From the NCBI GenBank assembly GCA_010405405.1, contig MU004230.1:2452627-2516626 (forward strand): a stretch of 64,000 nt of DNA, given 5' to 3'. This stretch comes from Microthyrium microscopicum (Eukaryota). Under the pieces are notes generated by a model. That model ran no database searches. It was not told the DNA's origin and was given only the letters and a program-made list of their open reading frames with translations. Of the stretch, positions 25,660 through 57,000 are shown piece by piece; within the stretch, counting starts at the first letter, position 1; the number at the start of each line of letters is the position of its first letter. A program made the translations under genes and the position numbers.

Positions 25660-27351
25660 TACTTTATATCCTTATTATAACTACTTTATTTTAGTATTTT
25701 TAGAATACTAGAGGCCCTAAACGCGTAGAAACGTAGTAGTTAGATCTTAAAAATAAAGTACGCTTAGGCTTATAATATTAATATACGTACCTTTATAGAC
25801 TATATTAATAAACGCGCTTTATAAGAAGAATTATTTCCTTATAATATACGTTTATACCTATATAAAGAATAAGTAATATTATTATTTATAAAGAAGCTTT
25901 ATAAGCTTAGAATTAATAGAAATATTATTATAATCTAAACTATAGCCTAGTAGTAAATCTATCTTTATCCCTATTAGCCCTTTGATCCTAAGCCTCTTCC
26001 TCTAGGCTAAAATTAGTTCTACTGCTTTATAACCTATTTTCGTAACGAATTACGTCTTTAAACTAATAATCTAAAAGAGCTAGATAGAGCTATAGCTAAG
26101 GATCCTAATAAAATTAAGAAATAGTTTAATAATCTTAAAGAGAAGTTTAAAAAGCTTAGAATTTAACTTAAAGACCTTTAGAACGTTAATAAAGGTAGAT
26201 TTAGGCTTAGGATTAGCAGCAAAGAGAGGGTCGTTATTCTTATTAGTAAAAGTAAGAATAAGAAGAAGAAGAAGAAGAGATAAAAGATTATAGCTATAAA
26301 GGATTTAAAGTAAGAACTTATTACTATAATAGAGTATATAAGTATTACTAGTAATTATATTCTTTTATAGGTAATTTTATTATTAAAATCTAGCAAAGTA
26401 TAAGAAAATTAGGTTTATAAGATATTTATTCCTAAGGACTAGTATATTAACACTTCTAAATTAGCTTATATAAATAATAAGATCCTTCTTAGTTAGATAA
26501 AGTATTTTAATAACGTTTCTAAAGCTTAATAAGTTAGTAAATTTAGGCTTTTATTAATTAATAGCTACAAGAATTAATAAATAAAGAACTTCCTATAATT
26601 TTACTTTAATTAGAAAATAATTCTTTACTTCTTATTACTTTATACTTTTTAGATTCTTTAACTATTAGATATTATAGTGTTTTAGCCTTATAAATACTAG
26701 TATAGAAAGGCTATTAGTAATCTTACTTATAAGAGGATTTTAAACCTCTTTAAAGTTAACTTTTTAGATTAGATTAGTAAGATCTACTATAAAATAATAA
26801 AAATAGGTATAATTAAGAAAAGCTTTAAAGATTCTAGAATTTAGCCTTTTAATTCATTAATAGTCCTTAATAATTTAGTAGAAGAAGAGATAAAGGAAGA
26901 GAAATTAACCCTAGATTAGTTTTTTATAGAGGAGATATTTCTAATACTAAGATTAAAGCAAGATATTAATTAAATTTAAGAGAGTATTTAGCTAGAACTA
27001 GTCTATCCTTATAAAGCTTTTATTAAATATATAAAAGCGTTAAATATTACCTTCTCTTAATACTAAATATATAATCTTTAAATTAGCAAGATAATAGTAG
27101 CTTACGCTAGGAAGACTAAATTATAGTTCTTTAAGAGGTCTATTAACGCGCTTATTAGTAAGCCTTATAAAATATAAGTTAAACGACTTTATAAAGTAGT
27201 TTAGAATTAAGTAGATAAAGAATAGGTAAAGATACGACGTAAATAGGTAAAGGTAGCTAAAAAGGCTACTCTTAAAGTAAGTATTAAATACGTTAAACCT
27301 AGCATAATACTACTACCTAAGGATTTACGATTTAGTAATAGGATTAGACCT
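25660..27351 (+). pseudogene. RIP-degraded DDE transposase of transposon A (boundaries approximate)
   Basis: Degenerate motifs, with the inferred original in brackets: NVNKGRF [NVDE.GF] at ~26182, LLLINSY [LLLIDGH] at ~26548, *LLDIIVF*PYK [QPLD..VFQPYK] at ~26659. Many TAA/TAG stops. Confidence 0.85.
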
Positions 27352-27574
27352 TGTGAGGAGCTAATGGGCACGATTAGGCGAGTAGAAAGTAGCTAGTATT
27401 ATAGGATCTAAGTATGAAGAGAAGAGATCTAGGGATGTAGCTATGAATATAAAGATATAGGGCCTAGGGGATCCTTAGACACACTAACCCTAAATAGGAT
27501 AAAGAGATCTTATCTATAGGATTAGATCTTAGCATCTAAATACTATAATACTAAACTTATAAGGATTCCTTATA
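27352..27574 (-). repeat. 3' LTR of retrotransposon 1
   Basis: 223-bp direct repeat of 34836-35058. The differences I compared are C/T or G/A transitions. Confidence 0.93.
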
Positions 27575-30500
27575 TAACTTCCCCCCTCTAAAATAGACCT
27601 TATAGGCTATATCCTAATCTAATCTATTCTAGTCTAGTCTAAGCTAATCTAGGCTAGGCTAGGCTAGTCTATATAAATATAAAACTTCTTTATATATATT
27701 ACTATTAAGGAATATAGTAATATACTATCTACTTACCTTAGTACTATCTAAATTTATTTAATAAAGAAGAGGATATCTATTTGAGCTAGTTTATAGTATT
27801 CTATAATTCCTTTAGTAGCGTAAATTAAAAACTAAACTAGGGGTATAATGCTTTAGTAAAAATAAATAAATATAACGCTTTTTTATACTATATAATCCTA
27901 ATCCGTAAGTAGTCTATTAGTATTATAATTTTCTTCTTTAACTTTATTTATTAGTAGGGACTAAGAAGGGTATAGACTAGGCTTCTAAAGGTAAAGCCTA
28001 TAGAATTCTAATATAGTATTAAGTACGTTAATAGCATCTTTCTAGGGCTACTAAGTTTTATTATAAAATCTTATCTATTTAATTTTATATTTAAGCACCT
28101 TATTCTTACCTCTACTATCCTATTTGCTATTAATAATAGTATTAATAAGCTATTCCTCTTTACCTTCTTTTTTACTAATAACTGCTAGGAGTAGGTTTAA
28201 TTCCTATAATAGGTATACGTTATTATTAATTAGATATAGTAGCTAGGCATAGAATACTAGGTATATCTTTATTAATTTAGAAAGATCTAATTTATAGATT
28301 ACTCTATTAATTTTATGTAATACCTTAAAGAGACTAGCGCTTTTACTATTAAGTATTTTTAAAGGGTAAGTTATATTATAATTTTAAATATTAAGACGTA
28401 CTTAGTCTCTAAGATAGAGATCTAGTACTAGATATTAATACTTATTAGTATAAAGCTTTTATTAAGCCTAAGCCTATACTAATTACTTCTTTAAGAACTT
28501 ATAAAGCTTTTCTTAACTATTCTATACTTAATTAGTAGTAATGACTTCTTTATAAGCTATAATAGAAGCGTATAATGCTTTAGGTAGTAAATAGTAAGTA
28601 GACTTAAGTCCTAATTTTAGTAGAAAACTATTTTGTGCCTTAAAAGGTATAAAACTAGTAGTAGTACTTATGGCAAAATTTATTATAAATTTAGTAAATA
28701 GTAATAGGGCTATCTAATTATCTTAATCCTAATTAATAAAGGATCTAAGATACTATTTTAAGGTAGTAATAGTTATTTTAGTAATGCTATTAGACTTTAA
28801 ATACTATGTAGTACTTAATCTTAATATAACGCCTATATATTTATATAGGCGATTCTAAAAGGTAGATATAAATTAAGTTCCTTAATCTAAAAGGATAAAG
28901 TTAGGCTAACTATATAGCTTTTATACTTAATTAATAAATGCTATAACTATTATTTCTACTAAAAGACTTAAGAGGGTAATAAACTATTATAATTGCGTTA
29001 AATAATTAATAATAACTATAATATACTAATAAACTATACCCTAGTAAGTATAGCGTAGTAGTAAGATAGTAAAGTCTATAAAGATATTAGATTAAGCCTA
29101 ATCTAGTAGAGGAAATAAGTAAAAGAGCCCTTACTTCTTTTAGCGTACTAGTTTTAAAAAGATATAGTAATAACCTTTAATATATTTCTTAATATATTCT
29201 AATATTCTTAGCTACTAATAATCTTATTAAAGGTAGTAGTATATTATTATAGTTCCTTTATAGCTTATAACTTTATGTTAATATGCCTATTTTATTACTT
29301 TATTTTGTAAATATATTATTAGTATAAATAACTTTTATTAATAGAGGATAGTACTATTTAGTAGAGCCTTATAATCTATTAATTTAATTTAATCTTAATT
29401 TAGTACTTTAAAGGATAAGAAGTAGTCTTTCTATACCTTTACTAGTTAAATCGTAATTAGTAACTTATCTTTCTTACTTACCTTTATTACTTCCTATATA
29501 AACTACTCTAGGTTGAAATCTAGGGATTTAGTATTAACTAGTAGCAAATTATCTAAACTAGCTAGAGCTCTATTCTAAGAGCTCCCTATAATAGATTCTA
29601 AATTAGACTTCTCTACTATAATAATATTTAGCTTATCTAACGTAAGCGTAGCTATCTATATAAAAGATAAGGTAATTAGGTTAATAAGGATTATAGCTAG
29701 CTTAATAGCTTATTTAGTACTAAATTAATATAGAAATAGAAGTAGTTAATATTATTACTTAACCTATAGGTCTTTATTACTCTAGAGTACGTCTTATAAT
29801 CTTTAGGTTAAAGTATTAGCTTTGTTATTATCTCTACTAGAGCGATATTTAATTAAAAAGTAGAATTATAATAAGAATTTAGCCTAGCGTATTTAATAGT
29901 ATATAAGCTTCTTAGTCTTTATAAAGGTTTAAAGGTTCTAATAATCTAAGAATACCTTTATAATATCTTTAGTACTAAACAATTTAGGCTCCTATTTCTT
30001 AAAAGCGTAGATAATAGTAAGTAATTCTTTATTATAAATATTATAATTATATTCTACTAGTAATATCTTTTTAGAGAGGAAGGTAACTAGTCTTAGATTG
30101 CTATTTGTATCTTTTTATAATAATATAGCGGCGTAAGCCTAATTTAATATATCTATCTCTATCTAAGTTTCCTTAGTATAATTAAAGTATTACAAAATTA
30201 GTATACTAGTAAAGTCTACTTTTAGCTTCTTAAAAGCTTACTCCTTAGGCCTATTAAGGTCTTAGGGGAATATAGCTAGAGTATTCTTTTAAGTAAGATT
30301 TATTAATAATACTACTATAGTAGAGTAATTAAAAATAAATTGTTAGTAGAAGTTAGCAAATCTAAGGAACGCCTATATATCTTTAAGATAACTTAGTCGT
30401 TCCTAGTTAACTATAGCGTTAACCTTTAAGGGGTCTATCTTAATACCTTCTATAGTAATAATTAGACTAAAGTATTTTACTTCTTAAATAGTAAACTCTA

Positions 30501-33500
30501 ACTTCTTAATATTAAGGAATAAGCTTATACGTTCTAATGCGTCTAGTACTAAGTATATATAGGCATTATATTCTTCTAGTATTTTACTAAATATTAGAAT
30601 ATTATCTAAGTAAATAGTTGCGAAATCGTCTAAAAACTATATTAATATATAATTAATATATACTTAGAATATCTCTAGTCCCCCTATAAGGCTAAAGGGT
30701 AGTACCTTAAATTTAAATAGGTCGTAGCGTATTAAGAATGCTATTTTGTGCTTATTACTAAGTTTAATATAGATATATTTAAAAGTAGTAATAACGTTAA
30801 ACTTAGAGTAGTATTTAGCCTTTATAAGGCGTATAAGTATCTTACTAATAAGTAGTAGGACGTTGCTATTCTTAATAATAATATTGTTTAATTTGTAATA
30901 ATTGATATAGATATAAATACTTCCTTTTAGTTTGCTTACGTAGAATATAGATATAGCATACTAAGATTTTAAACCTATAGTAAAACCTTACTAGAGTAAA
31001 CTCTTAATATACTACTTAATAACTAGTGCTTACTTTAGTAATATTAATATAGGTTAGCGTTTTAGAATTTTAGCATTAGGAATAAGGTTAATAGCGTAGT
31101 TATATTTACTATAGTATAGTACTAGGATATCTAAACGTTTTAGATTAAAGACTTTAAAATATTAGTAGAAGCGCTCTAGAATAAGTTTTAAAATCTCTTT
31201 CTTTAATAGATAAGAGTAATCTTATTTATCTTACTATTTAAGATAATCTTCTTCTAATATAGCGTATGCTATAAGATTTATAATGAACTCGTCGTTGTTA
31301 TCCTTATCGTTAAAAGGTTTCTTCTCTTTCTTATTGTTAAAATCTTTAAGCTAGAATACGTTAACTATAGCGTCTTTGCGCTTTATTAGTTTTTTAAACG
31401 CCACTATGAATATAAAAGCAATGTCTAATTCCTTAGGTAATTCTAAGTTTATAGATTATCTTTTTAGGTCTATAGTAATTAGGCGTCATAATATAATATA
31501 ATTTATAATATATCTTATGCTATAGAAGGTTAATATTCTTAATTCTTTATATAGGTTAACTTTATATTAATCTAGCTAGAATGCTCCTAGGATTAGATTG
31601 TAAGAGGTTACTTTTATAACGAAATAGTTAATTTGCTTAACGTAGTATCTAATACGTAGGTTAAGGATAGTAGCTTTATTAATAATAGATACTAACTTGT
31701 TATTAGTAAGTATTACTAAGCGTAGATAGGCTAATTAAAACGTTAAAATACTATATTACTAAAAATAATAAGGGTTAATGATTCCTATTGTACTACTACT
31801 AGTATTAATTAAAATGCTAGCATTAGAGTAAGTTAAATATTATAATATAAATACTAAGCTAATAGTAGTCTATTATAATCTAATAATAGGATCTTTCTTT
31901 TTAATATCCTAAGGCTATACTACTAGTATAATAGAGGCTAGTAAGATATAAATAGTATATAAGTATACTAGGAAGATATATTCTTTATAAATAGCATCTT
32001 TATACTTAAAGTGCTAAATATACTAATAAAGGTAACTAAGTATCTTCTTAGTCTTCTCTTAAGCTTTTTCTTTAATATTCTTATAGTCTTCTTCTATCTA
32101 ATAAAATATCTTCTTAGCTTTCTTAGTGTTTTAGCGCTATTCCTTATTATATTAATAGAATATTTCCTTTACGTGTTTAGTTATAGCGTTAAAGGTGCAT
32201 TTCTTTCTTTTATTATATGCTTTAGTCTTATTTAGCTCTTCTTTATAGCTTAGTGAAAGAGCGTCTAGTTTAAAGACTAATAGTTATTATCCTTAGTAGT
32301 ATCCTCTATAGAGGGTTACTATTCTTTTTAAACCTTTATAAATATTGCTACTAAGGGTATAACTAAGGCTTTAATCTTATTATTAGATAAGGGTTTCTAA
32401 TCTTTATATAACATGGTTTTATTAAAGTAGTAGTAATCCTTTTATTTATAATAGACGTAACGTTTATCTATTTTTAAGGCGTTAAAGACGTCTATAGAAT
32501 AATTAACGTTACTATTTTTATTATTTTAAGCCCCTTTATTAGTAGACTAATTATTATTATAGCTATAAGAGTTATTATTTATAGTAATAAGCTTATAATT
32601 AATTTAGTATATAACTAGGTAAAGTTAAGTACAAAATATAGTAAAACTACTAAAATGCTAGCCTACTAGTAAATTTATAAACTTATAATTAATAAGATCT
32701 TATAGTTTAATAATCTTCTCCTACTTAAATAGTTCTATATCTACTAAATTTGTTAAGAAGTAGCTAATAAAGGCTTAAAGACTTTCTATATCTTTTATCT
32801 TAGTATCTAAGGACTTTAACTATACCTTAGTATCTTTAAAAGCGTTCTTAGAGTAATAATATCTATCTAGGTCTACCTATATCTCTTCTATAGTATAATA
32901 AAGGTCCTTTAACTTATAACCTCTACATATAATTATAATGCCATAGATAGGGCTAGTATAATAGATATAAATAAACTTAATCTTCTTCTTCTTAGTAAAG
33001 ACGTAAAGGTATATATTTTTATTAAGAAGTATATCTAATATCTTTTTTTTCTACTATTTATAGTACGTAGGTTTACCTTTAAAATTACTAAGTTCTTTAA
33101 ACTTTATAAGTATTACTAGAGAGCTACTATTAGCTACTAATAATAGTAAGATATAATATATTCTCTAGGCTTAGAGCTATAGATATAAAACTACTAAATA
33201 TATTACTTATAGTATAGAGCAACCTAATAAAAGGTTATCCTCTAGATCCTCTAAATTAATATAAGCTTAATTTAAATTTATCTAAAGTTTATCCTTAAGC
33301 TCTTAGATTTAGTAGCGAAGGTTAATAACTAACTTATAATACTATAAATTAGTATTACGTTTCTTTACTAGTTTAATAAGAGCTACCTATTTATTTAAAT
33401 AAGCAGTAGTTAGTGCTACTTTATAATTATGGTAGACTTAGCTAGTTAGTACTTTAAGATTTATTATTATTTACTAATAAGTAGCTGCCTCTTCTTATAG

Positions 33501-34835
33501 TATATTTACTATTTTACTTAATTGACTTACTTCTATATTAGCATTTATAAGTTCTTCTACTAACTAGTCTTAAAGCTTTTAAGTAGACTAATACTGTAAG
33601 GCTATAGTTTAATTAATTGCCAACGCTATATGTAGTTATTTAAAGAATTAATCTTCTTCTATAAATTTAATGTATTAATTTAAATGCTTACTATTAGATA
33701 TTAATGCGTAATATTTCTAAAGAGTAGTAGAATTATTAGGGTTCTCCTAGAAGACTACTAGTATTTATTTCTCTACCTCTAGTCCTACTCTATGTAGAGC
33801 CTATATAAATAAAGGCTTTATACTAGTAAGTAATGCGACTTTACTATTAAGGTCTACTAGTTCTAAGGGCAAGTAAGGTAAGAATAATATAGGAACGTTA
33901 TAAGGTTCTTTTTTATATGCTAGTAATTCTAACTAATAGTAGATATTAATAAGCAATCTTGCTTCTAACGCGCCTTTATCTAGACTACTAATAATAGCAC
34001 TAGAGGTTACTACCTCTTTGCCTTTTAATCCTAGCTCTTTTATTATGCTTACTAGCGTAATAGGTGCTAAGGTTAATAGTCTAGTAATAATCTTATAAGG
34101 TTGTTAAATATTAATACTAACTTAAGTATTTTAACAAAGGAATTCCTTATCTTTATTATCTAAAGCTACTTTAGGTAATAAAGGTAACTTTTTAATAGAT
34201 TTAACTATTAGGATACTTTCTTGCTATAGCATTAACATAATAGTAGACTATTAATTAGTTTCTATATCTAGAATGACTAGCTTCTTAGCGAAACGGCTAT
34301 CTCTACTATAGTAGAGTAAAACTAAATAGCTTTAAATACTAACGCTACTACGCTTATAGGCAATATAAGAGTCGCTTAATACTAGTTTAAGACTAGGATA
34401 AGTAGCGCCTTACTTATAGTAATATATAGCTAAAATAATATAGTATTTCTTAATAAATTGGAACTAATTTAATAGAATAATAAATATAGATTTAATAAGG
34501 AATAAGATAAGAGTATTTATAGTTAGTAGAGAAGAAATAATGTAAACGCCTCTATAGATCCAAGAAGAATACTACAAAGCAAAGCTTAGGCCTCTAAGTA
34601 GTCTTTATTCTAGCAAATAATGCTAAATTTGCATTACTCTAGTTAGTATTTATAAATTTACTAGCACCTTTAGTAACGCTAATCCTAATTAAGGGTAGTA
34701 TTACTAAATACTAATTAGTTAGATCTATAACATAACTACGATTAAGATAGGAATTAATAAACGCCTCTACGTATTTATTAACGATGCATAAATTTATATA
34801 TAGAGCATAAATTTGGTATAGAGGTACTTAGATTA

Positions 34836-35058
34836 TATAAGGAGCTAACAAGCATAATTAGGCAAGCAGAAAGTAGCTAGTATTGTAGGATCTAAGTACG
34901 GAGAGAAGAGATCTAGGGATATAGCTACAGATACAAAGATATAGGGCCCAGGGGATCCTCGGACACACTAACCCTAAACGGGATAAAGAGATCTCATCTG
35001 CAGGATTAGATCTCGGCATCCAAACACCACAACACCAAACCTGTGAGGATTCCTCACA
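34836..35058 (-). repeat. 5' LTR of retrotransposon 1
   Basis: 223-bp direct repeat of 27352-27574, followed by TSD GACCT. Confidence 0.93.
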
Positions 35059-36149
35059 GACCTAATGCATATTTTTAACTAGATATTTAATAAAAAATAT
35101 AAATACTTTATTTTTAGCTATGTAGCAGTATATTTTAGAGTATCTACGTTTCTCTTAGTATTTTAGCGGTTTGAACGATTAGTGGTTCGAACGGTGGGCA
35201 TCCCCTAGCGGGGATGTTCAGGACTCTGGGCATGGGTAACTGCCCAGGTGTATAACCATACTAGCCAAGAGCGGAGTGGAAGGAGCGGAGCTGATGGTCT
35301 AGACTTTATTGCTTGGCATGACGGCTAGACCTTCCGAAATTAAGTGCCCAGACTATAACCCCGCGTTGGAAGGCAAGAGCTATCACGAAGCAGGAAAAGA
35401 CTGTCTCTTAGTCAACTTCATCTCCACTCTACCCTGTTGCCTTTGCTTCCCTTCCCAGTGCTCCATCTCCAACCTCTCCATTCTTGTTCTCTCTGTCCGC
35501 CTTACTGCTAGCTAGCTTGAGCCAGCCTAAACCTTGTTGCAAGCTACTACCGTTGATTAAATCTCGTGCCAAGCATCTCGGCGTTGTCTTTTATCTGCTG
35601 CTTCTCAGTACCATCGGAACCTTCATACAACTCTTATCTAGATCTGTACCAGCCTCATGTTGCGCATACTGAAAGTCTGGACTATCGTCTTTGTAGATGT
35701 CAGTTTTTCCTGTTGAACCATGATCGATTCTTGGTCCATATCTTGAATAGCTACATAATACTAATAACTCACCAGGAGGGCTAACATTTGTCTGGTCCAC
35801 AGCTGCTGTTACTACAGTGCGGAACAAGTACTTCCTTCACCATCTCTTTAGTGAATGTAGCAGCTAACACTATTTCTTTAGATCTCAGCTTCCTATTAAA
35901 GACATAACAACTCCACCACCTTTCCACCATCCGCAATCGCGTTCCACTCTCAGCCTGTCGCCTTCTTGGTTTCGCCTTCCGCAATATTGCGTACTACCTC
36001 AACAATACCCAATCCATATGGATCTGTTTGTCTACACCTAAGAAAGACAATACCTGCATCCAATCCTTTAGCGCCCTATATCGATAACTTTTATTCCTCA
36101 ATCTTTCATTTTTGTCGCCGATCTTCGCAACCCATATTCTAATCTCATC

Positions 36150-43100: not shown

Positions 43101-45241
43101 GCATACAGGATTGTGGCCTAAACCGTACTACTACTGGAGCGCAGATGGACTCTGACGGTGCCTTATGCTGCAACCAAACTACATAGCAAGAATATGCGAA
43201 CTGTGCCATACCTGCACGCAGTCGCCCATGTCATCCACAAAGACCTGTGAGCTGCCAGTGCACACTGTCTACTGCTTCTGTGTATCTCCCACTGCTGTCC
43301 ATCCATGTCGTGTTCTCGAAGGATTAGGTCACTTCGCAATCCCAAATCAGTCAGACCGCACCATCAATCCAGGTCAAATGCTGACGCTTCATTGGAGTTG
43401 GGAGCCGTGGGAGAGCATAGCGTCAAGTTCCATCAGTTTGTTACAGAAAGATACATATACCCTCTACGGAAGGCTTCTCCACATGATCTTCTCCAGGAAA
43501 ATATGGGTATATTTCTTCAATCACCAATTCAACCAAAAGATCCAATAATGCTATCAAAAACCACCGCTAGGGTTGAGAGCTAATGCTGTGAGCAGACAAA
43601 TAACAAGCCCCTGAATGGGTGTCCTCCTGCTTAAAGCGGTAAGATACGCGCACAAAATGTAGTCTTGTTGGTCCGCAAGGCTATCCACGCAAGTTACCGA
43701 AGTAGCAAAGCTTGCTCATGTTATAGCCTTTGAATCAGCTATGATAGAACTCCGCCATCGGCATCTGCCTGACATGCTCGATGAGCTATAACAGGATCGT
43801 CCTATCGCGCGTTACGATCCCGTCAATGCCATCACCCGAAAATCGAACAACATCCACTATTCAACTTGACGTCTCTCAGCTCCCAGGTTGGTATGAACCG
43901 TTTAACAGTTCAAATTATCCTATTGGATTTTGTGCTCAACGACTCCATTATGCGTTGTTTCTGGTTTCTTCCCAGTCTGTTTCGATCCACTCACCAAGTT
44001 TCGCTTGTTCAGATTTTCAAATACCGCCTAGGTCTGTTCACGCGCATGAGCCAGCCATGTTCATTTTGTTCTCCTGGTATACGCTTTCGAAAATCCGGGT
44101 TCAGTCACGTCGGCTTTGCCGACTCGCTGCCCTAAGTCGTAGAAGAGTTACCTCTATCGCCATGGGCCCAATAAGTCCAAGTGCCTTCTAGGATCTGGCG
44201 CAGGGAATCTTTCTCCCCTGTATGGTTCAATTGCATATGATCTTCTGTTCAGAAATTTAACTTCACGACGTCTCTACGTCTAATAATCTTTGAGGTTGTC
44301 GTAGATGTATGCGGCAAATATCTGACAGTAGATGTATACTCAAGATTTGCTTGTCTGACTCAGCCTAATACACATACTTTGTGAATAATACAGTAAAGAC
44401 TGGACTTAGTTCATCGCAGATAGCATCTACCACTTGTCCAGTCCGTGCCTTGCTCAGCGCAATCGTGTCGAAGGAGGTATTTGCCAGGGAGACGTGGTAT
44501 GATCGGTGAACCCCATTACTTCCGGCCTCTTGATCTACGCTTATTCGATATATTATAGTGGTCTATGCACCGAGTATCCCTGGATTCATGATGTGATACA
44601 GTGATGCTCACAGCTACTATCCGTGGACAACACCCACCGCCTACGGCGGTGGGGGACGCCTGAACGCTATGGACAGCTAAACGCTACATGTTATAAACAC
44701 TATACATTTAAATAATAAATACCTAATAAATAATTCTCAAAATAATAGTGCTATTAGATCTATTACTTTTCTATATCCTATAAAATTTTTACGCGCTTTT
44801 AATAAGAATTATAATATTAGCTATATAAAATAATACTAATTTAGGATATATCTTAAGATAGTTTTTTTAGCTAGGTTATAGCTAATTTTGCTATAATAGA
44901 TATTTTTTAAATCTAAAAAAAGGAGCATAAATAGTAAGTAATAAATTATATATAGTATTAGTTTAATAAATATTTATTATATTCTAAATAATTAACGTTA
45001 AGTTAAAGTTACTTAGGTTAAAAGATATTATTATTATACTCTACTAAGATTTTACGTTTATAGGCTAGATCTATAACTATAACGCGTTCTAGCTCTTTAT
45101 ATTAAAAAGATAAATTACTAAATCTACTACTACTTTTGTAATACTAAACTAAAAATAATTTCGTAATAAAGCTTATATATTAATAAGAAGAGACGCTTCT
45201 AGAGAGTGTAATTTTATACTTATTTGCTAATCTAAAGATAC

Positions 45242-45509
45242 TGTCAGGAACTAGGACACCTCTAGTTTAAGATAACCACTAATAGGACACGTCTACGTAG
45301 GATGAAGCATTATTAGTTAGGTTGACTAATAACGACCCATTATAAACATAGATAGCTTAGTAAAGTCCTTATAGCTCTAGGTAATAAAAAAGAGAGATTG
45401 TAAGGGTCTAAGTAACTCCTTAGCAATTACTCTTATCTTTATTTTTACGTATTTACTTAAACTATAATAATTATAGTTTTTACCTACTTAAAACGACTCA
45501 TTTCTAATA
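45242..45509 (+). repeat. 5' LTR of retrotransposon 2
   Basis: 268-bp direct repeat of 53752-54019; starts TGTCAGGAA. Confidence 0.93.
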
Positions 45510-48500
45510 TAGTAATTGCTTCTTAATCCTTAAGTACCTAAAGAAATTATTTTTATCTTTTATTTAATTAGAAACTATGTTTAATAGCGAATATTTAGAC
45601 CTTAGCGCCTAGATAAGACTTAGGTAGCCTTAACTATTAGGCTAAGGATTACTAGTACCTATTATACTCTAAATTAATACATTTAGAGGTCTATTAGACC
45701 TATTTAATATTAAACTAGCTAATCTTAATTTACCTAAGCCTAGGAAGACTTAAAATAACTTTATAATACGCTATAAGGAGGAACTTAATATGCTTATTAA
45801 TAAAAAGAAGCTAGAGCTTAAGGTATAAGAGCTAACGATAAAAGCTAGGGTAATTTAGTCTAGTAAGCTTAAAACTACCTAAGAGTTAAAGAACTTTAGC
45901 TAAGTTAACGCAACAAGACCTAATTAGCGTCTTTTAAGCTAAGCTCTCGCCCTTTTAGAACCTTTAAACTAAGATAGGCCTAAGATAGAGCTTTATAAGG
46001 GGAAGAGTCTTTAGGAATATATATTCTAAGTTAATAACGTTAAATAGAAGTTCGTTAAACCTTTTTATTAAGAGAGCACTTATAATTAGCAACTCTATTA
46101 GTATATTTATAAACGTAATTAGCTTAAGAAAGGACTATTATAAATAGGATTAAATAATCTTATTCTTTATAAGGAGTCTTAAGACTTAAGATTCTAAAAG
46201 ATATAATAAGTAGTCTAAAACTACGTGCTAGGCTATTTAGGCTACTTTATAAAGTAAGAATATATTATTTTTAAGAAGTCCTAGATAGTTAAATTAGGTT
46301 AACACTACCTATAGGAGCTCTATAATAACCTTCTTAAGTTATAAAAGAAATAAGAGTATAATAACTAAAAGGGTTATCTCTTTTAGTTTTATAGAAGCCT
46401 CTCTAGGAATATATAAAAGAAGATTCTCTTTAATAAGAAGTTTACTATCGCTATAGTTAAAAAGGCCCTTAAAAAGACTAACTTATACTAGACTCCTAAC
46501 TTTATAGAAGCTAAGGCTTATTTCGCTTCTAAAAAGATAAACCTAAGATAATCTTTTTTAAAATAACGCTTATACTTTTTAGGAAATAAGTATAAATATA
46601 AGAAGGGCTTAAAAGAGCTAAGAATACCTAAAAAGTTCTTTTACTCTTTAAAGAATAGTAAAGTAGAATAAGCTATACCTAAAATAACTTAGAACATAGA
46701 TATTCTACTAGAGTCTAACCTAAAAAAGGTTAAATACTTTAAATATAGTAGACTCTACTTTAAAATAGAATACTCTAAGCTATAAAGAAAAAATAAGGCT
46801 ACAAAGTTATAAACTAGAACTTAGTAGCCTCTCTTATTAATAAGATAGCCTAGCTTAGTATTAAATAGCTTTATAAGACTATTATTATATATATCCTAAA
46901 AACGTTAAGAACTAAGAATAATAACTTACCTAGTAAGGTAAACTTTATAAGACTAAAGTTAAAGCAAATATACCTATAAGGAAGTCTAAGGAATAATAAG
47001 AGCTAAGAGGCCCTATCCTTAGATATTATAGTTAATTATAGGTTATACTTTAATATTATAGACGTTAAGCTAGCTAAAAGACTTTAGCTCTATATTACTC
47101 CCCTTTCTAAGATACTTATAACGTACTTAAATAATACTCTTATATAAATTTATAAAATTATAGAAGCTATAGTAATAGTAGTTAACTTAAATAGCTTCTC
47201 TAAGACTAAGATAGAATTATTTTATATTATAGACTCCCTATATTACTTTATTATTATAGAAATATCTTAATTAAAGGAGTAGAATCCTCTTCTAGACTTT
47301 AAGAATAAGACTCTTACGTAAGAGTAACCTTTTAGTAGCTTTTATAACAAGATAAGGACTATAAACGCTAACGAGTTCTCTAAGTTAGCTTAAGATAATT
47401 TATCTTAACTATTTAATTATCTAATTAGGTTACTAGACCTAAATTTATTTATAGAAGAGCTCCTAAGCAAGTATTTATAGTTTACTAAAGTCTTTAGTAA
47501 GTAAGATACGCTTAAACTAGCTTAATATAATCTATAAGACCTTAAGATTAACCTAGAGCTAGGTGCTATAGTACTATATAGACTTATTTATAGTCTCTTA
47601 GAGGCTAAGTTAATTATTCTACGTAAGTACTTAGATACTTACTTTATAAGAGGTTAGATCTAGAAATTAAAATCTTCTACTAGAGCCTCTATCCTCTTTA
47701 TAAAGAAGAAAAATAGAATATTATAACTCTATATAAACTACTAAAGCCTAAATAATATTATTATTAAGGATTAATACGCATTACCTCTTATTAAGGAGTC
47801 TTTAAATAGACTTTAAAGCGCTAAGTTCTTTACTAGCCTTAACTTACGTAAAGCTTACTATCATTTATATATTAAAGATAGTAATAAGTAAAAGATTATA
47901 TTTAGAACTAAATATAGGATATTTAAGTATATAGTAGTCTTATTTAGACTTATAAATACTCTTATAGCCTTCTAAGTATATATTAACTAAGCATTAAGAG
48001 GCTTAGTAGACGTAATATATATTATTTACCTTAATAACATCCTTATTTACTCTAAAACTAAGGAGTAATATATTAAAGACGTCTAAGAAGTTCTATAATA
48101 ACTTATAGAGTATTATTTATACGTAAAACTATCTAAGTATAAGTTTTACACTAGTAGTATAGAGTATCTAGATTATGTTATAATCCTAGATAGTACTATT
48201 ATAGATTAATTATAGATTAATATATACCTAGATTAGCTAAAACTATATAATATATACTAAGTAAAGAAATTTATTAGCTTTATAAACTACTATTATTAGT
48301 TTATTACTAGATTCTTCTATATTACTATACTACTAAATGCCTTAACCTAGAAAGAACTAGGTTAGGTCCTAAAAGGCCTAAAGCTATAATAGAAGAAGTC
48401 TATAAATATTAAATTACTACTAGACGCCTTAGATTCTTTTAATAAACTAAAAAATTCTTTTATAAACATACCAATTTTAGCCTATTTTAACTCTATGTTT

Positions 48501-50854
48501 TCTATATAGTTAGAAACTAATGCCTCTAGAAGAGTAATTTATAGGATATTAAGCTAAAGATAGCGTAATAAAAGCTAAGATAGCCTATAGAAACTTATTA
48601 CATTCTATTCTTAGAAATTATCTCTATTAGAGAGCTACTATAGAACTCTACAATAGGAGTTCTTAGTAATTATAGATTCCTTAAAAGTATTTAGAAAGTA
48701 CTTATAAAGCTTACTAGACTAATTTTAGGTCTTAATAGACTATATAAACCTTAAATTGCTTAAAATAATACTAAAAATATTATTAATATACATAAGGTAG
48801 GTAGATTTGCTCTTAAAATATAATTTTAATATTAAGCACTACCTAAGCAAGATAAATCTAGCTAATGAATCCTTAAGACGTCTAAACTATATTAAAGAGG
48901 ACTAAAGAGAATAAAAAAAGACTATAGAAGCGTTACTTAATCTACTTTATAATAAGTTATAGCTTAACGACACTCCTATAACTAAAATTAACGCTATTAG
49001 ACTTATAGACTTTATTATTACGTATATTAGTATTAATACGTAATATTCTACTATAAACTAACTTAAGAAGAGTTAAGATAAGCCTACTAAGACCTAGAAG
49101 TATCTAAAAATAAGCTCTAATAAGATTTTAGCTATTAATAAACTCTCTCTAATTAAGAACGACTTAGACGAAGCTAAATAGACAAATAGAAATCTTATTT
49201 TTATTAAGGAAGAGTTATAAAAGAAGAAAATTCTACAAAGGTTTTATAATAACGCTATAGAAGATAGTTATAAGGGGTTAAAGAAGATACTTAAGAAGAT
49301 TAAGTATTACTATACCTAGGATTACGTCTAAAAGAACGTTAAGGACTATTATAAAGCTTGCCTTAACTACTAACGCAATAAATTTATTAGATAGGCTTAG
49401 AAAGAGTTACTAATAGCCTTACTAATCCTAGAAGCGCTATAAGAGGATATTATTATAGATTTTATTATAGATTTACTCTTAAGTATCTATAATAATTAAA
49501 CCTATAACTCTATTATAATAGTTATTAATAAATTAACTAAAATAGCCTACTATATTCTAATAAGAAAGGATATAGATATAAAAAACCTTACTAAGATCTT
49601 CTTATAAGAGGTTATACGCCTATATAGCGTACCTTATACTATTATATTTAATTAAGAACCTCTCTTTATTTCTAAGTACTAGAAAATATTCCTTTATTAT
49701 CTTTCTATCCTTAGAAAGCTCTTAATAGCATTTTACTTATAGACTAATAATTAAATAGAGTACTTAAACTAAGAGGTTAAGTACTACTTATAGATTTATA
49801 GGTATTAAGAATAGGATAATTAGGCAAGATAGCTTAGTTTAGCTAAGTTTAACTATAATAATAGTATTTACTCATTAACTAGAGTTACTCCTTTTATTAC
49901 ATATACTAAAAGGAACCTCTATGCTTCTAAATTAGCTAAAACGCTATTAAAAAGCATTATACCTAATACTAAAGGGATAGTAAACTATATTCTATCTCTA
50001 TAACGTATAATAAGGGACAAATTAGCTAAAGTATAGCTATACTAGGCTAACTAGTATAATAAAGAAAAGAAGGATATTTATTTAAATATTAGTAACTAAG
50101 TCCTACTTAATATAAAGAATATTTAGACTACTCGCATTAAGAAGAAGCTTAATATTAAGTATATAAGTCTCTTTAAGATTATAGAGGTTATAAACACTAA
50201 TACTTATTAGCTTAACCTCCTAAAGAATATATAAGTCTATAATATATTTTATATCTCTCTATTAAAGCTATATAAACTAAACCCCTACTTTCTACAAAAG
50301 TCTATATTACTATAGGATTCTTTAAACCTAGAAGACCTAAATATATATAATATAGAGAAAGTAATAAAGCATATAGTAAATAAAAGAAATAAATATTACT
50401 ACCTTATAAAATAAAAAGGTTACCTAGAGTCTAAATTAACCTAAGAGCCTATAGCTAACCTTTCTTTAACTACTTTAAAGCGCTATTACGTAAAGTTAAC
50501 TAAGAAGAGTATTATACTAGCAATAAGTACAATTAAAGAAGCAGTTAAATACAAAATAATATATCTAAACGATATCATAAATAGATTAACGAATCTTAAC
50601 CTTATAAGACTAAAAAGACAACTAAGAAGGCTAAAGAAGATCTAAAAGACTTAAGACGAGCTTTTAAAGAAGAGGGATAGTTACTTCGTGATTTTCTTAT
50701 TAATTAGAACCTAAATTAACCTCTTTATATATATATCGTAATAAATTAACCTAAAGTAACTTAAAAATAGTGCTAGATAATAAGTATATAGAAAAACTAC
50801 TAAGTTATAAATATATAAAATAACCTAGAATAATACGTAAAATAAGTCTTTATA

Positions 50855-50914
50855 TATATATAAAGGGTACTTCTTTAAGAACTCTTTATAACGCAAAATA
50901 GGGTTAAAATATAT
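50855..50914 (+). repeat. Internal 60-bp direct repeat, copy 1
   Basis: Aligns without gaps to 53011-53070; all mismatches but one are transitions. Confidence 0.85.
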
Positions 50915-51168
50915 ATTAGAAAATATATAAAAGAATAAGTAATTTCTAACTAAGAGTTAAATTAGCTATATAATAGTTTTATAAGGGTATCTATTAACAA
51001 ACCTATTCTTAGAAAGTCCTAGAAGGGTATCTACTAACTAACTTATCCTTAAGGGACGCAAAATAACTTAATATAATAAGAAATAGCTCTACTTAGCTAA
51101 TTAAGGCTAAGTATAGATAATACTAAATTCTAAAAGACTTAAGATAACCTATTTAACCTTATTTTAAC

Positions 51169-52700
51169 CTAAGAAGAAGCTACCTAGCTTATCTTATACT
51201 TTTTTATAGTAAGACTTATAGCCTTAACCTTAGAATAGTCTTTATTAGTATAACTATCCTTATAGAAAGCCTTAATAGCCTTTTTAATATAGGCCTTAAC
51301 CTCTTAATACTTAGAAACGCTAAGATAGGCCTTATAGCGCTTAAGAAGCGCTTAAGAGTTTATAAGGACACTACTTAGATTATTCTTAGTATTAGTAAGT
51401 TACTATAGAATAGTTAGATATAAAGTAACTTATTATAAATATAAAAAGACTTACTTAAAATAAGTTAGGTCCTTAAAGACTAATAATATAGCGAAAGTCC
51501 TAATGCTAGAAATATAGTATATTATAGCGCTTAAAGCGCTTAAGAGAATAGAATTAGATATTAGTAGCTAAGAGAGCTAGACAAGCTATAATACGCTTCT
51601 CTAATTCTAAAAGGCTATTATTTACTAGCTTTTAGGTAACTTTAGTACCTATATAATAGTTAATAAGCGCATAGGTTGCGTAGAAGCTATCCTTAGCAAT
51701 ACTAAAGTATAATAGAAAGAAATTAGCTACTAGCTACTTAAATATACGACTATAAACTAATTAGCGTCTAAATACGTAAAACTAAACTAAAATTAGTTAA
51801 AACGAGTATTTATAACTTATAAAAAATTACTATATACTTATAAGTATACTAAATACTACCATAAAGCACACGTTTATCCTTATAGGATAATTTATCCTAA
51901 GAATCGTTCTTAAGAACATAAATAACCTTATTAATTATAATATAGACTAAGATAAGCTTAGCCTTATTATAAAGGTCCTAATAAGGAACGACTTACCTAT
52001 ATTAGTATAATATAATATAAAATAAGCTAGAATAGGACATTACCTCTAAATAATCCTTAGTTAACTTTATATTAAGGTATTTAACGAAGTACTTACCTAA
52101 ACTAACTTACTAAGTATAATGATACTCTAAGTTAAGAATAAGGTAGAATTTAGTAATTAAAGAAGGAAGAAAATACGCAGCATAGACCTCTATATAACGC
52201 TAATAGGGATTTAAGGTTAAGTAGTACTATAATAAACTAAGTAAGGCTATAACGCTCTTATTAGTATATTTCTACTCTATCTTATCTTTAAAGACTACTT
52301 TAATAAGGTCTACAATATTAGTAGTTAAGATTTAGTTATTATAAAACGTAATAATATTATTATTAGTAGAAATAGTTACTACAATCTTACTAAAGTTAAA
52401 GTTGCCTTTAATAAAGACTTAAGAGCCTTTAATAGAATCTTTAAGTAACTTATTTATATTAACGCCCGCTTTAAATAAAGATAAGTTTAAAAGTATATAG
52501 GTTAGTTAAAATAAGTTATTAAAGGTTAAAAAAGTATAAAGTATACTAAAATAGGTTAAGAGAACCTAAAAAGGCGCTAAGTAGCTTAATAACTAAGAAG
52601 AGAAAATTTATAGTTACTAAAGAAGGACCTATAATATAAAATAGGTTAGTAATAATAATCTTTATATATATTTACAAAACTATAGAATTTCTACTTACCT
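51169..52700 (-). pseudogene. RIP-degraded, intron-containing antisense gene of unknown function inside retrotransposon 2
   Basis: Minus-strand intron-like segments 52698-52629, 52096-52046, 51996-51947, 51830-51782 and 51454-51403. The last three exons join in a coding-like frame. The 5' end is not resolved. Confidence 0.62.
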
Positions 52701-53010
52701 TAAAATTTAAAGTATAAAAGATAAGAGATAAAGAATTTAGAGTAAGAAGAGTTATTTTATACCTAAATCTCCCTACCTTTTTAAAATAGCTAAGTATTAA
52801 CGTAATAATACTTAGTAAAGATCTATAAGAGCCTCTTATAATAAAAGAAAATTACGCATAGTATAGTAAGCACTTAGAGGAGTCATAACTTTCTAAATAG
52901 AAAGGTATAATCTTAGCCTTAGAGTCTCTAAACTTTTAAGTAAAGATTTAAATACCTTACTATAAATAACGCAAAATAACCCTTAATTAGACGTAAGAAG
53001 CGTTAAGATA

Positions 53011-53070
53011 CGTATATAAGAGGTATCCCTTTAAGAACCCTTTTTAACGCAAAATAGAGTCAAAATACAC
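53011..53070 (+). repeat. Internal 60-bp direct repeat, copy 2
   Basis: Aligns without gaps to 50855-50914. Confidence 0.85.
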
Positions 53071-53751
53071 CTTTAATCTAGAGCTAAATAAGGCTTATAA
53101 AGTAGTTTTATATATAAGTTATAGCTACCTAACCTACTATAAAGCTAATTATACTAAACTAATATAAACTTAGTATATTTAACATAGTATAACTAACTAA
53201 GTTAAGCTATATATATTTTAATAACTAGATAACCTATACTATATATAGAATAACTATTTAGTAGTATTTTAATAAGATCTAATTAAATACGAATAGTAGC
53301 ACTACACTATATTTACAAATAGGTTAATTTAGCTTTAATAAAGCTAGTATTAACTAATTAAGACCCTAATAGAGCTATTAACTACTTATTAAATATCCTA
53401 TTAATATATTAGACCTTAATAACTAGACTTCTTTAAGTTTAAGTTAATATAGTTAATTATAGCCTAAGACTAGTAGAAAATAGAGAGCTATCTATCTAGA
53501 GTAAGTAAAAAATAGAGGGCTATCTATTTTAAACAAGTAATATACTAAAGCTAGAGAATAAGAACATTACTAAGCTATAGAAGACTCTCTAAAATATAGG
53601 CAACTTAATCTTATATATTTAATTAAGCCTTATCCTCTCCTAAGTTATAGTATAATAAAGTATAGTTAAAAGCTATATATAAGCATAAGAAATATTTATT
53701 AGAACCTTTAAATATACTTTTTAGGATAAATAGCCTTAAGAAGGAGAATAA

Positions 53752-54019
53752 TATTAGGAACTAGGACACTTCTAGTTTAAGATAACCACCAATAAGATAC
53801 ATCTACATAGAATAAAGCATTATTAGTTAGGTCAACTAATAACGACCTATTATAAACATAGATAGCTTAGCAGAGTCCTTATAACTCTAAGTAATAAAGA
53901 AGAGGAATTACGAGGGTCTAAGTAACTCCCTAGCAATTACTCTCGTCCCCGTTTTTACGTATCTACTTAAATCGTAATAATTATAGTCTTTACCTACTCA
54001 GAACGACCCGTTTCTAACA
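53752..54019 (+). repeat. 3' LTR of retrotransposon 2
   Basis: 268-bp direct repeat of 45242-45509; ends TTTCTAACA and is followed by TSD GATAC. Confidence 0.93.
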
Positions 54020-57000
54020 GATACCTTACTATATTATAGAAAGAATATTTAAATTACTTAAGAAAGATTAAATTTGACGCTAATTCCTTAACCTCTAAGG
54101 CTCTAAATTAAAGTACGCTATAAATAACTAAAGACTAAATAACGTTTAAGATAAAGCACTATATAATTATCTTCTTAAACTCTCTAAGATTAGTATCCCT
54201 CTATAATTTAAATATCTTTAAGATACTACTAATAATATCCTTTACTATAGTATACTACTAGATATCCTAAATCCTCTCTCTATAGACTAAAAGTAGCTTA
54301 GACGCTTTATAAAACTATACCTATAGTTTAAGATTATAAAGTAAGAACCTTTTAAAGTTACTTATTAAAAGGCTATAGACTATAGTAATATTAAAGCTTT
54401 TATATAGAAATATAAACGAACTATTAATTAATATAAAATTTAGCCTATAGATACTTAGAATATAAATAAAATAGGTATTAGAATAGGTATTAGTAAAGGT
54501 TAGTAAGCAATAGTTCCTATAGGTAAAGAATATAGTTATTTTAACTACTATATCTAGAGCTTTAGAGAGAGGAAGAATATTACTATTATAAAGGGCATAT
54601 CTATAGCTAGATATATAATTAGTCCTATAATTATTACTAAGGGCTAAATAATCTAGGGGTAGTAATTTTGTAAAGTTAAAGATAAAGATCTAGCTATTAG
54701 TAGGAAGCTTCCTTATTTATATTAATAACTTACTAATTTTATACTATAAGAATATTAGAATTAAGTTATTTAAATAATATTCTTAGATTCTTATAGATAT
54801 AACATTTTAATTAATTATTAGCTTAAACTTAGTAAAGAGAGTATAGATTATTACTCCTTAATAGCTATAAGAGCTATTTAATGCGTTCCTTTACTTTCTT
54901 TTATAATACGCGTAAGATTATAATTCTTTAACTACTACTATATACTACGTACTTCTTATAATCTCTAGATATTATAATCTTTTAATAATAGAAGCATTTT
55001 TACGCTAAATACCTTAATAAAGCTCTATAAGCTAGATTAGGTAAATTTAATAAATAAACCTTCTTTATTACTATTAAATCTATAAGACGTAAAGTTATAA
55101 AGCTAAATTCTATTAAATCTAGCTTTAGGTATTATAGTTTTTAGCCTTTTAAATTATTAGAAGTGCTATAATATCTATCTATAGATTTACTAAATCTTTA
55201 TATTTTATAGGACTAGAGTAACGTTAAAAAGAGTAAAGATAAAAAGGAATTATCTACTAAATAGCGTACTTTTTTAAATTTATAAGAACTTTATTAGTAA
55301 TTATCTTAGGCGCTTAACTACCTAAGATTCTTTTCTATACTACTAGATATATTAATATACGCGTACTAAAGATTAAACTTTTAGGCTCTATAGTAAGAAA
55401 TCTTTACGTAGAATAATCTTTATTTAATCCTTTTAGAGTTCTATTATAACTTTTATCTTGCCTATATATATTAGAATAGATATAACTAGGCTTAAGTTAA
55501 CTTTGTTTAATAAGAAAGTATAGTTTATGCTAGTAATATTCTCTCTTTCTATAATATTAATACTTTAGAGCCTATTTTAGTTAAATAGTAGGCTTAAGAT
55601 AATAATCTATATTAAAAAATATAGAGATTGCTACTATATTACTTAGTAATTCTATAGCTACTTTAAATAATACTTAGTAAGTACTTATAACTTACTTATA
55701 AAGTAAACTAGCTTTAAGATAAAGCTAAACGTAAGGAAATTAATAAGTTAAAGTAGTATAATACTATAATTAAGAACTAGAAGTAAGAAGTTAAAGAGGT
55801 TACTTACGTATATATACTTTTATAAGTAGTAAAATATATAAGTCTATAGTCGTAATTTAGAGTAGATATAAATATACTTTCTACTAATTTATAAGCTATA
55901 TTTAATAAGAATATAGATTAGGAGATAATACGCTATATATTACTATATTTTTACTTTAGACTAGATAATAATAAGTTATAAGAGTAAATTTAAAGAATTA
56001 CTACCCTAGAATTAATCTTAATCTTAATTTCGTTACTATATTATAAATTTCTTAAACTATAATATTTTTCTTTTAAAATAAATTATATAATAAATATAAT
56101 ACGTTTTAAATATCTCCTAAATTTTTATTAAATAATATTACGTAGTTATTAGATGGCCGTAGTATAGATAAAATATATAGCGTTTAGCTGTCTGTAGCGT
56201 TTAGGCGTCCCCTACCGCCTACGGCGGTAGGTGTTGTCTACGGATATGTTCTTGCGCTATAGTTCTTTCATTTAGTGTCTGTGCCTGTGTTTCTTAAATC
56301 AGTTCCAAACCCTCTTGGCACTAGCAATTGTTTAAAGCCTGTCAATTAATCATCCTCCTATCGCCAGCGAACAGGCAGATGCCAGGCGCACATCATGACT
56401 ATGAATATCTAATGACCAACAGCCAAATTAGCTAGAAAATTGGTTGGAACATACCGCAGGTGCATTTGGAAACTGGAGAGCTTGATGGGACAAGCGTATT
56501 ACACGATATTGGCCTTGTCAGCCTTTCCCGAGCTCTTGTATCGCAGAACCAGAAAGGATAATAGTTTGTAACACTCTGGACGCACGTACGAGAATACCAA
56601 CAAAAGTAGCCTGCCGTCTATCCCTGGTAAAAGAAGCTCTGACTGCAACACGTTACCAACTCACCCATGACCTATCAGCGTAACCAGGTTCTTCCGACTG
56701 CCTTGTACCCGTTTTTTCAAGATCAAAGATTCCTAATGCGGTAAGAATCTCGAAGTGCTAATATAATAACCCTTAAATGTGCACATATAGCCTCGAGACA
56801 CCATGTTAGTACCGCCAAGATGGGAAAACCCTCGTTGCGCCTATCGACATAGTTTCATGTCTTGAGCATTGTCAGTGTGTTATCACCAACACGGGCGGAA
56901 GTTAAGGAGTAGTTCTGCTGCATTCTCGCTGATGTCCAAGATCATAGACATCGTCGGAGGCTTATATGAAGCTATGAGCTAATCATTCACAGCCCTCAAC

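Follow-up and report, generated by a model that had tools for sequence, protein, structure and literature searches.

Antisense genes of LTR retrotransposons

An antisense gene called brtn, carried by Boty-like long terminal repeat (LTR) retrotransposons of fungi, was reportedly treated by Zhao et al. in 2011 (Virology 417:248). We describe a locus that is probably a further case of the same class, i.e., of antisense genes located between pol and the 3' LTR. It lies in a window of 64,000 nucleotides from Microthyrium microscopicum (assembly GCA_010405405.1, contig MU004230.1, positions 2,452,627 to 2,516,626), within a Ty3/gypsy chromovirus at 45242-54019 that has been mutated by repeat-induced point mutation (RIP); all positions are those of the window. 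With a probability of roughly 0.55, the element appears to be a dead, RIPed copy of a chromovirus family carrying a spliced antisense accessory gene of the brtn type, or of the type known from plants as aORF-3R. The gene would comprise about 530 codons in four exons (52935 to about 51170), separated by three short introns of fungal type (70, 49 and 52 nt), all of them in phase 0.

The gene brtn is cited in several papers (PMC7264820, PMC8365987, PMC4227169, PMC5987419). It is drawn for the element BcGypsy1 in PMC8365987, two text supplement files of which contain no mention of it; a chromodomain is present in the gypsy element that carries it (PMC4227169), and a Monilinia transcript resembling BRTN has been noted (PMC5987419). 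According to the available part of the review PMC7264820, genes that lie antisense between pol and the 3' LTR occur in Boty of Botrytis cinerea and Sclerotinia sclerotiorum, as well as in plant Ty3/gypsy elements, where they are termed antisense additional open reading frames (ORFs) and are represented by gene23 of maize Grande, rice RIRE2, Silene Retand and Phaseolus PvRetro13. The same part of the review notes that antisense extra ORFs have been seen repeatedly in LTR retrotransposons and that function is known for none. The preliminary description of the present locus had taken only the plant antisense ORFs as known, overlooking the fungal precedent in the Boty-like elements of Botrytis and Sclerotinia (PMC7264820, PMC8365987).

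The M. microscopicum locus resembles brtn in several respects. Both occur in filamentous ascomycetes with RIP and on gypsy elements, the present one having a sub-threshold Chromo match, and the putative extra gene lies on the opposite strand between pol and the 3' LTR, its role being undefined in both cases. In contrast to brtn, the copy studied here is RIP-dead, and the likeness is one of position and probable strand. Protein searches with the read-throughs of two putative exons (2 and 3) returned no relatives at all. Position and probable orientation are also those of plant aORF-3R, which likewise lack clear similarity to known proteins. The plant genes are present in most copies of a family; here the segment is multi-copy, and its linkage to the element is seen in this copy. 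Grande gene23 has its own antisense promoter, and the roles proposed for such genes are those of a regulatory protein or of an antisense RNA (PMC7264820). The word 'intron' does not occur in that review, which calls only for a look at spliced antisense transcripts. The plant genes belong to another kingdom and to other gypsy lineages and have no sequence relation to the present one.

Antisense genes that retroviruses express from the 3' LTR, such as HBZ, are comparable in that the 3' end of an element propagated by reverse transcription gives rise to a coding transcript opposite to gag-pol. The antisense promoter of human T-lymphotropic virus (HTLV) is mentioned in PMC7264820. HTLV differs from the present case in being an animal retrovirus with the promoter inside the LTR and with no sequence relation, whereas the putative gene described here is set apart from the LTR by a spacer of 680 bp. 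Fungal antisense retrotransposon genes are nearly undescribed beyond brtn, and the literature searched, namely that outside subscription papers, yielded no further fungal antisense gene and no multi-intron antisense gene of an LTR retrotransposon.

A coding-like signal between pol and the 3' LTR

Sparse stop codons and GT..AG strings needed controls, because RIPed DNA is rich in TAA and TAG and the real pol of this element is itself filled with stops (96 in the 1313 codons of its true frame, or 7.3 per 100 codons). Frames were scanned in purine/pyrimidine (R/Y) space, which is unaffected by C-to-T and G-to-A changes and hence by RIP; three-base periodicity survives RIP because transitions leave the purine/pyrimidine class unchanged. 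An eight-class R/Y codon model was trained on long host ORFs and on pol, which gave near-identical in-frame patterns.

The frame scan with this model reveals a three-base periodicity over 51080-52600 that is equal in strength to that of pol. A path search with a frame-change penalty gave 51050-52750 a plus-strand score of +10.2 and a minus-strand score of +3.7; the means of 150 shuffles were +1.6 (standard deviation 2.5) and -9.9 (standard deviation 2.7), respectively, and no shuffle reached the observed scores. With the model trained on host ORFs only, the same interval has z = 4.3 (plus) and 5.9 (minus), as high as pol, and the neighbouring 52750-53740 has z = -1.4 and -0.3, so that the coding-like signal ends about 1 kb before the 3' LTR. 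The post-pol region thus looks like decayed coding sequence. It is not a duplicated piece of the element's own gag-pol: its six frames matched nothing in all other RIPed DNA of the window in a local BLASTP search at E up to 1 (as a control, the pol proteins of this element and of a second one in the window matched at 6e-37). A BLAST search of the region against the window in R/Y space, with uncalibrated E-values, gave nothing above noise except a pair of direct repeats, R1 and R2, discussed below.

Putative introns and the gene model

The preliminary description had listed five intron-like strings on the minus strand, and all five are found there with the lengths and end motifs given. Three of them (70, 49 and 52 nt) are retained as putative introns 1 to 3 (Table 1). 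The 50-nt string (51996-51947, GTAAGT..TAG) is rejected as an intron, since splicing it out would shift the reading to a frame in which 38 codons include 9 stops. The 51-nt string (52096-52046, GTAAGT..TAG) is in frame and stop-free and may be either coding sequence or an intron; in our model, exon 2 runs through both. Taking out the 49-nt and 52-nt strings leaves a single frame, as had been claimed, and the peptides quoted in support are present, frame -1 containing SIAKDSFYATYAL.. and frame -0 containing ALLKRYKAYLSVSKY*EVKAY...

The strict pattern GTAAGT..CTAAC..YAG, spanning at most 100 nt, occurs only twice in the RIPed DNA of the window (19.7 kb, or 39.5 kb-strands when both strands are counted). 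Both occurrences are the 70-nt and 52-nt strings, and the other 37.8 kb-strands contain none; two strict patterns were reached in 3 of 300 dinucleotide shuffles of the segment. GTAAGT itself is found 5 times in 1.77 kb of the minus strand of the segment versus 23 times in 38.5 kb-strands of the remaining RIPed DNA, i.e., it is 4.7 times denser. The plus strand of the segment has no splice pattern of strict or medium stringency. In unmutated host DNA, similar strings of 46-95 nt are present at 9 per 85 kb-strands and have the appearance of local introns. The 49-nt string matches a loose pattern only, of which there are 5 instances on the minus strand of the segment.

The best path on the minus strand changes frame three times, from -0 to -2 between 52555 and 52472, from -2 to -1 between 51852 and 51730, and from -1 to -0 near 51556. 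The lengths of the 70-, 49- and 52-nt strings fit these three changes exactly. Exons 1 to 3 come to 237, 798 and 327 nt, all multiples of three, so that all three putative introns are in phase 0. For all four exons, the frame that splicing dictates is also the one with the fewest stops and the best likelihood; given exon 1, we calculate the chance of such a fit as 1/27. The complete model has 31 stops in 531 codons (17 TAA, 14 TAG, no TGA), a lower rate than that of pol. Control windows, even though their frame could be chosen freely, had no fewer than 32 stops (antisense of gag-pol) and 34 stops (sense strand of gag-pol of this element). The 3' end of exon 4 is approximate, stops being dense below about 51190. 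With 31 in-frame stops, no surviving ATG and a GC content of about 25%, this copy of the gene is dead. Within putative exon 3, amid this 25% GC DNA, an island at 51640-51700 has escaped RIP (AAGCGCATAGGTTGCGTAGAAGC, with TpG kept); a transition-tolerant 40-letter probe from 51665-51704 had one match in the window and none in JGI metagenome contigs or in IMG/VR.

Table 1. Coordinates of the chromovirus, of the putative antisense gene and of the associated repeats, in window order
Feature	Position	Strand	Remarks
Target-site duplication, left copy (GATAC)	45237..45241	.	Identical 5-mer on both sides of the element
5' LTR, 268 bp	45242..45509	+	Starts with TG; terminal CA RIPed to TA
gag-pol, Ty3/gypsy chromovirus, many RIP stops	45510..50640	+	Pfam on read-through with stops as X
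Direct repeat R1, downstream of pol	50804..50914	+	Aligned to R2
Putative exon 4, about 77 codons, contains ALLKRYKAY...	51170..51402	-	4 stops vs 6 and 18 in the other frames; best R/Y likelihood
Putative intron 3, 52 nt, phase 0, GTAAGT..CTAAC..TAG	51403..51454	-	Strict pattern; length accounts for the -1 to -0 change
Putative exon 3, 109 codons, contains SIAKDSFYATYAL...	51455..51781	-	8 stops vs 11 and 17 in the other frames, hence only narrowly best
Putative intron 2, 49 nt, phase 0, GTAATT donor, CTAAT branch-like motif, TAG	51782..51830	-	Length accounts for the -2 to -1 change
Putative exon 2, 266 codons	51831..52628	-	18 stops vs 27 and 44; second-position G 16 vs C 36
Putative intron 1, 70 nt, phase 0, AAG/GTAAGT..ACTAAC..TAG	52629..52698	-	Strict pattern; length accounts for the -0 to -2 change
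Putative exon 1, 79 codons	52699..52935	-	1 stop vs 8 and 11; no ATG survives
Direct repeat R2, directly upstream of exon 1 in gene orientation	52959..53070	+	Aligned to R1
Spacer without coding periodicity	53071..53737	.	R/Y frame scan of 52750-53740
Polypurine tract (AAGAAGGAGAATAA)	53738..53751	+	Adjoins the 3' LTR; read directly from the sequence
3' LTR, 268 bp	53752..54019	+	Ends with CA
Target-site duplication, right copy (GATAC)	54020..54024	.	Matches the left 5-mer

The search for a relative of the product

The six-frame read-through of the whole element, with stops as X, has no Pfam match in 50700-53700 at E up to 0.1; when the four exons were searched individually with the limit raised to E 10, nothing but noise appeared, all of it on exon 4 and headed by Spiralin (0.018). 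Exon 2 had one match in PDB, at a meaningless E of 0.06. Word-indexed protein searches returned 591 candidates for the read-through of 51801-52559, which is most of exon 2, and 331 for exon 3, none of them at E up to 0.01 and 0.1, respectively. The preliminary description had proposed a search with HMMER; a full HMMER search with the 51801-52559 read-through against 1.84 billion proteins found no match at E up to 1e-3. Calibration with slices of pol, given below, indicates that a conserved host gene or a common transposase would probably be seen in such a search, whereas an orphan that evolves fast would escape it. The sequence lends no support to any specific function, anti-silencing included.

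The carrier element and its mutation state

The element lies inside an AT-rich block. GC content in the RIPed DNA is 0.23-0.28, compared to 0.45-0.52 in the flanks. The LTR pair, with TG..CA ends and a 5-bp target-site duplication outside, aligns over 268 columns, of which 228 are identical and 40 are transitions, with no transversions; identity in R/Y space is 99.6%. Because the LTRs differ by transitions only and are flanked by the same GATAC, the element is one intact insertion that was hit by RIP afterwards. Both the LTRs and the end of pol near 50640 are as first described, with the start of the 3' LTR fixed by the TG..CA ends and the target-site duplication.

Pfam models matched to the pol read-through include RVT_1 (1e-8, residues 836-992), two RNase H models, among them RT_RNaseH_2 (2.3e-11, 1078-1170), SH3_Tf2-1 (2.3e-9, 1633-1691) and, weakly, Integrase_H2C2 (0.035, 1341-1394). 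All lie in one plus-strand frame, in the order typical of gypsy elements, reverse transcriptase - RNase H - integrase. A Chromo match at the expected C-terminal position of the integrase (E 2.5e-4, 21.4 bits) stays under the 25.1-bit cutoff. The closest relative of pol among 5.8 billion proteins is P0001, an unnamed Pol of 1158 residues with a chromodomain (PF00385), at E 1.4e-82 and 27% identity. When reversal of transitions is allowed, 52.7% of the aligned residues are compatible with P0001, versus 16% in a shuffled control. None of the nine pol relatives found bears a family name that would tie the element to the Boty lineage or set it apart. Ten IMG/VR contigs of 5.5-6.4 kb that are filed as viral (L001-L010) encode a complete gypsy-type Pol, 35-42% identical to P0001; they resemble genomes of LTR retrotransposons more than those of viruses, and a long region after pol is absent from all ten.

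The spacer beside the 3' LTR contains a short direct repeat with overlapping copies (53462-53508 and 53494-53540, 96% in R/Y space). An inverted repeat, imperfect at 72%, is formed there by 53460-53495 and 53512-53547.

Direct repeats and other copies of the segment

The direct repeats R1 and R2 flank the segment of about 2 kb on both sides. Of the 111 columns in their alignment, 80 are identical, 21 are transitions and 10 are transversions; the score is 133, against a shuffle mean of 52 (standard deviation 5.8). The R1/R2 duplication is therefore much older than the insertion, which suggests that the gene entered the 3' untranslated region of an ancestral element by duplicative recombination. 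A nested DNA transposon is rejected, as no inverted termini were found around 50915-52958 (no R/Y 24-mers with at most one mismatch, where about one is expected by chance) and six-frame Pfam searches detected no transposase domain.

Contigs from public runs under the same organism label were placed on the element at a likeness of at least 80%, yielding 731 pieces in run X1 and 2092 in run X2, which fall into every likeness class. All 30 bins of the element are covered, the whole post-pol region included, and the differences are almost all transitions: in X1 there are 313 A>G, 315 C>T, 289 G>A and 270 T>C changes, and every class of transversions has at most 9. Diverged pieces lie at 51473-51812 (46 differences), 52224-52616 (38) and 52241-52684 (65). 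Among the copy-to-copy indels listed, to which 13 further ones have to be added, indels occur as compensating pairs. No run contig in the region lacks the putative introns or has joints. The segment is therefore multi-copy and RIP-diverged; the idea that it is absent from all other copies, which the preliminary description had accepted as fatal to its proposal, fails against the many transition-diverged copies in X1 and X2. Run X5, which carries another organism label (B), has two pieces in the region, a contig of 243 nt that is identical to the RIPed copy at 52520-52762 and a piece at 51092-51424 with 35 differences. An identical RIPed stretch under the label of another species is odd and may be due to labelling or to close kinship. 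No run recorded as RNA contains the stretch, and X6, presumed to be an RNA run, contributed no contig, a result without bearing on expression.

Weighing the proposed antisense gene against its alternatives

A number of observations speak against the four-exon antisense gene. In the frame scan, the switch from -1 to -0 falls near 51556 and thus precedes the 52-nt intron by about 100 nt; 4 stops occur in the final 34 codons of exon 3, where frame -0 is open. Similarly, the first 20 codons of exon 2 have 5 stops, and frame -0 read through intron 1 has only 2 in about 50 codons. The 49-nt intron has a weak donor (GTAATT) and was picked among three further loose candidates on the same strand. In no contig (the pieces listed are at most 490 nt) is another copy of the segment joined to pol or an LTR. 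No homologue was found, though 5 of 7 equally RIPed pol fragments of 253 residues would reach E < 1e-3 against P0001. Finally, some of the strand statistics are unfavourable: raw R/Y likelihood prefers the plus strand (+10.2 vs +3.7); a 64-codon strand test trained on pol is neutral, with +3.4 over 518 codons, where coding sequence similar to pol would give about +48 or -48; the composition-corrected test pointed to the wrong strand in one of six control segments; and a path along the plus strand that switches frame four times meets 44 stops in 593 codons, a rate as low as that of pol.

The strongest competitor, which we nevertheless regard as unlikely, is that the segment is foreign cargo without a role, i.e., part of some host gene or other mobile element that was picked up in reverse orientation, which either was a pseudogene already when the family amplified or has its other copies in a different element. 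The old direct repeat brackets exactly the 2 kb in question, as would be expected of a secondary acquisition. The missing contig bridge to pol or LTR in other copies agrees with this, as do the uneven depth over the segment (summed contig depth of 168-1027 in X1) and the loss of any ATG. Related chromoviruses, moreover, lack such a region: the second gypsy element of the window has less than 400 bp between the end of pol and its 3' LTR, and in the ten IMG/VR contigs the pol match stops about 120-890 bases short of the contig end. On the other hand, there are no terminal inverted repeats around the segment and no transposase or other Pfam domain in any of the six frames, and the search of 1.84 billion proteins, empty as it was, would probably have picked up a conserved host gene or a common transposase. 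The single insertion with its target-site duplication and transition-only LTR differences, and a stop density below that of pol, contrary to what a much older pseudogene should display, also speak against foreign cargo.

A sense-strand alternative deserves attention since the best plus and minus frames share the same triplets, so that there is one periodic signal and only its strand is in question. We consider it improbable that the region is a third ORF after pol (env-like or of ORF3 type), its frame broken repeatedly and the intron strings of the minus strand coincidental. Sense extra ORFs after pol are known in plants, according to the part of PMC7264820 available to us. The raw R/Y scan and the low stop count already mentioned are in its favour, the latter including 65 stop-free codons at 51181-51375, and so is the normal pattern of the plus path, with 66% purines in the first and 52% pyrimidines in the third codon position (the minus reading has 52% and 66%, respectively). 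However, shuffles attribute about 11 units of the plus-strand advantage in R/Y likelihood to base composition, the plus strand of the element being purine-rich, and the composition-corrected z is higher on the minus strand (5.9 vs 4.3), this test being right in 5 of the 6 control segments. The 64-codon test, neutral here, was positive for all control chunks of 150 codons in cross-validation (0.4 to 19.9). The plus reading requires four frame changes, for which there are no splice patterns on that strand, the splice-like signals being confined to the minus strand; the compensating indel pairs, as far as listed, make these changes look family-wide rather than private to this copy. No plus frame has a Pfam match.

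Further evidence comes from the second codon position, where G is rarer than C in 30 of 34 test pieces of known sense strand (9 of 10 chunks of pol of this element, 6 of 7 of pol and 2 of 3 pre-reverse-transcriptase chunks of the second element, 2 of 3 gag chunks of this element and all 11 host ORFs). The minus model follows this rule (G 49, C 80), and the plus reading, with G 80 and C 49, is the opposite. The minus strand is thus more likely to be the sense strand, by a margin that is not wide. The earlier proposal of a third gene, antisense to the others, is supported in part, as to a region that looks like decayed coding sequence and as to the strand by depletion of second-position G, intron signals and stop density; two composition statistics remain neutral or favour the plus strand. 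Sparse stops, on which that proposal also drew, are present, but weak when taken alone, given the rate in pol and the comparable plus-strand path.

Slightly less probable still is that there is no gene at all and that periodicity, frames and intron strings arose by chance in non-coding, TA-rich 3' sequence: RIPed DNA does abound in TAA, TAG, GTAAGT-like and CTAAC-like strings, a real pol is stop-filled too, neither a homologue nor RNA evidence was found and the strand statistics disagree among themselves, but chance would have to account for a periodicity that is absent from the adjoining 1 kb and beyond all 150 shuffles, for strict intron strings without parallel in the other RIPed DNA, for three frame changes all met by introns of fitting length, and for a stop density lower than in every non-coding or antisense RIPed control window.

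How such a gene could work and persist

The case for a spliced antisense gene is one of sequence statistics on a dead relic, and we infer its transcription, splicing, promoter, function and mode of acquisition. In an intact copy, the gene would be transcribed antisense to the genomic RNA from its own promoter, expected in the spacer next to the 3' LTR. The introns being on the antisense strand, the genomic RNA would not be spliced there, and they would be copied faithfully in each round of retrotransposition, which would explain the persistence of an intron-bearing gene in a retroelement. The product would be an orphan protein, by analogy perhaps a regulator of the element's own cycle, and the antisense RNA could also pair with genomic RNA.

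It is possible, and we offer it as a tentative extension, that this fungal chromovirus family gained its four-exon antisense gene of about 530 codons independently of brtn, a gene without relatives among 1.8 billion proteins that was kept across copies, its introns persisting since only the opposite strand passes through RNA. If so, intron-bearing antisense accessory genes would be a recurrent invention of fungal LTR retrotransposons, and the role of such genes could be studied in a second case unrelated to the first. The three antisense introns, if real, provide a clean assay, as junction reads could come only from a minus-strand transcript. The tests of R/Y periodicity and of second-position G and C may be of wider use, for they recover the frame and partly the strand where RIP defeats homology searches.

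Surroundings of the element and a second chromovirus in the window

The window has a GC content of about 47%, with two AT-rich blocks (22-29% GC) at 25.5-35.2 kb and 44.6-56.2 kb, the second of which contains the element described above (element A). The first contains a different RIPed gypsy element (element B), at 27344-35058 on the minus strand, with LTRs at 27344-27574 and 34828-35058 that are 99.6% identical in R/Y space. The pol proteins of B and A have 34% identity, and B is without an extra gene.

Both RIPed blocks are bounded by terminal inverted repeats (TIRs), of 75 nt around element A (44618-44692 and 56172-56246, 96% in R/Y space) and of 86 nt around element B (25533-25618 and 35153-35238, 100%). 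The two retrotransposons thus appear to have a TIR-bounded element, about 2-2.9 kb in size, around them, each in a copy of its own. Pfam searches of the DNA flanking both retrotransposons gave nothing, and so no transposase was detected there. The sequence to the right of element A (54109-55173) resembles that to the left of element B (25842-26872) in the same orientation, with 61% identity over 1.1 kb (E 4e-38 under lax scoring); this likeness is not collinear with a simple host element of the same family in the same orientation. The TIR termini of the two blocks have motifs in common.

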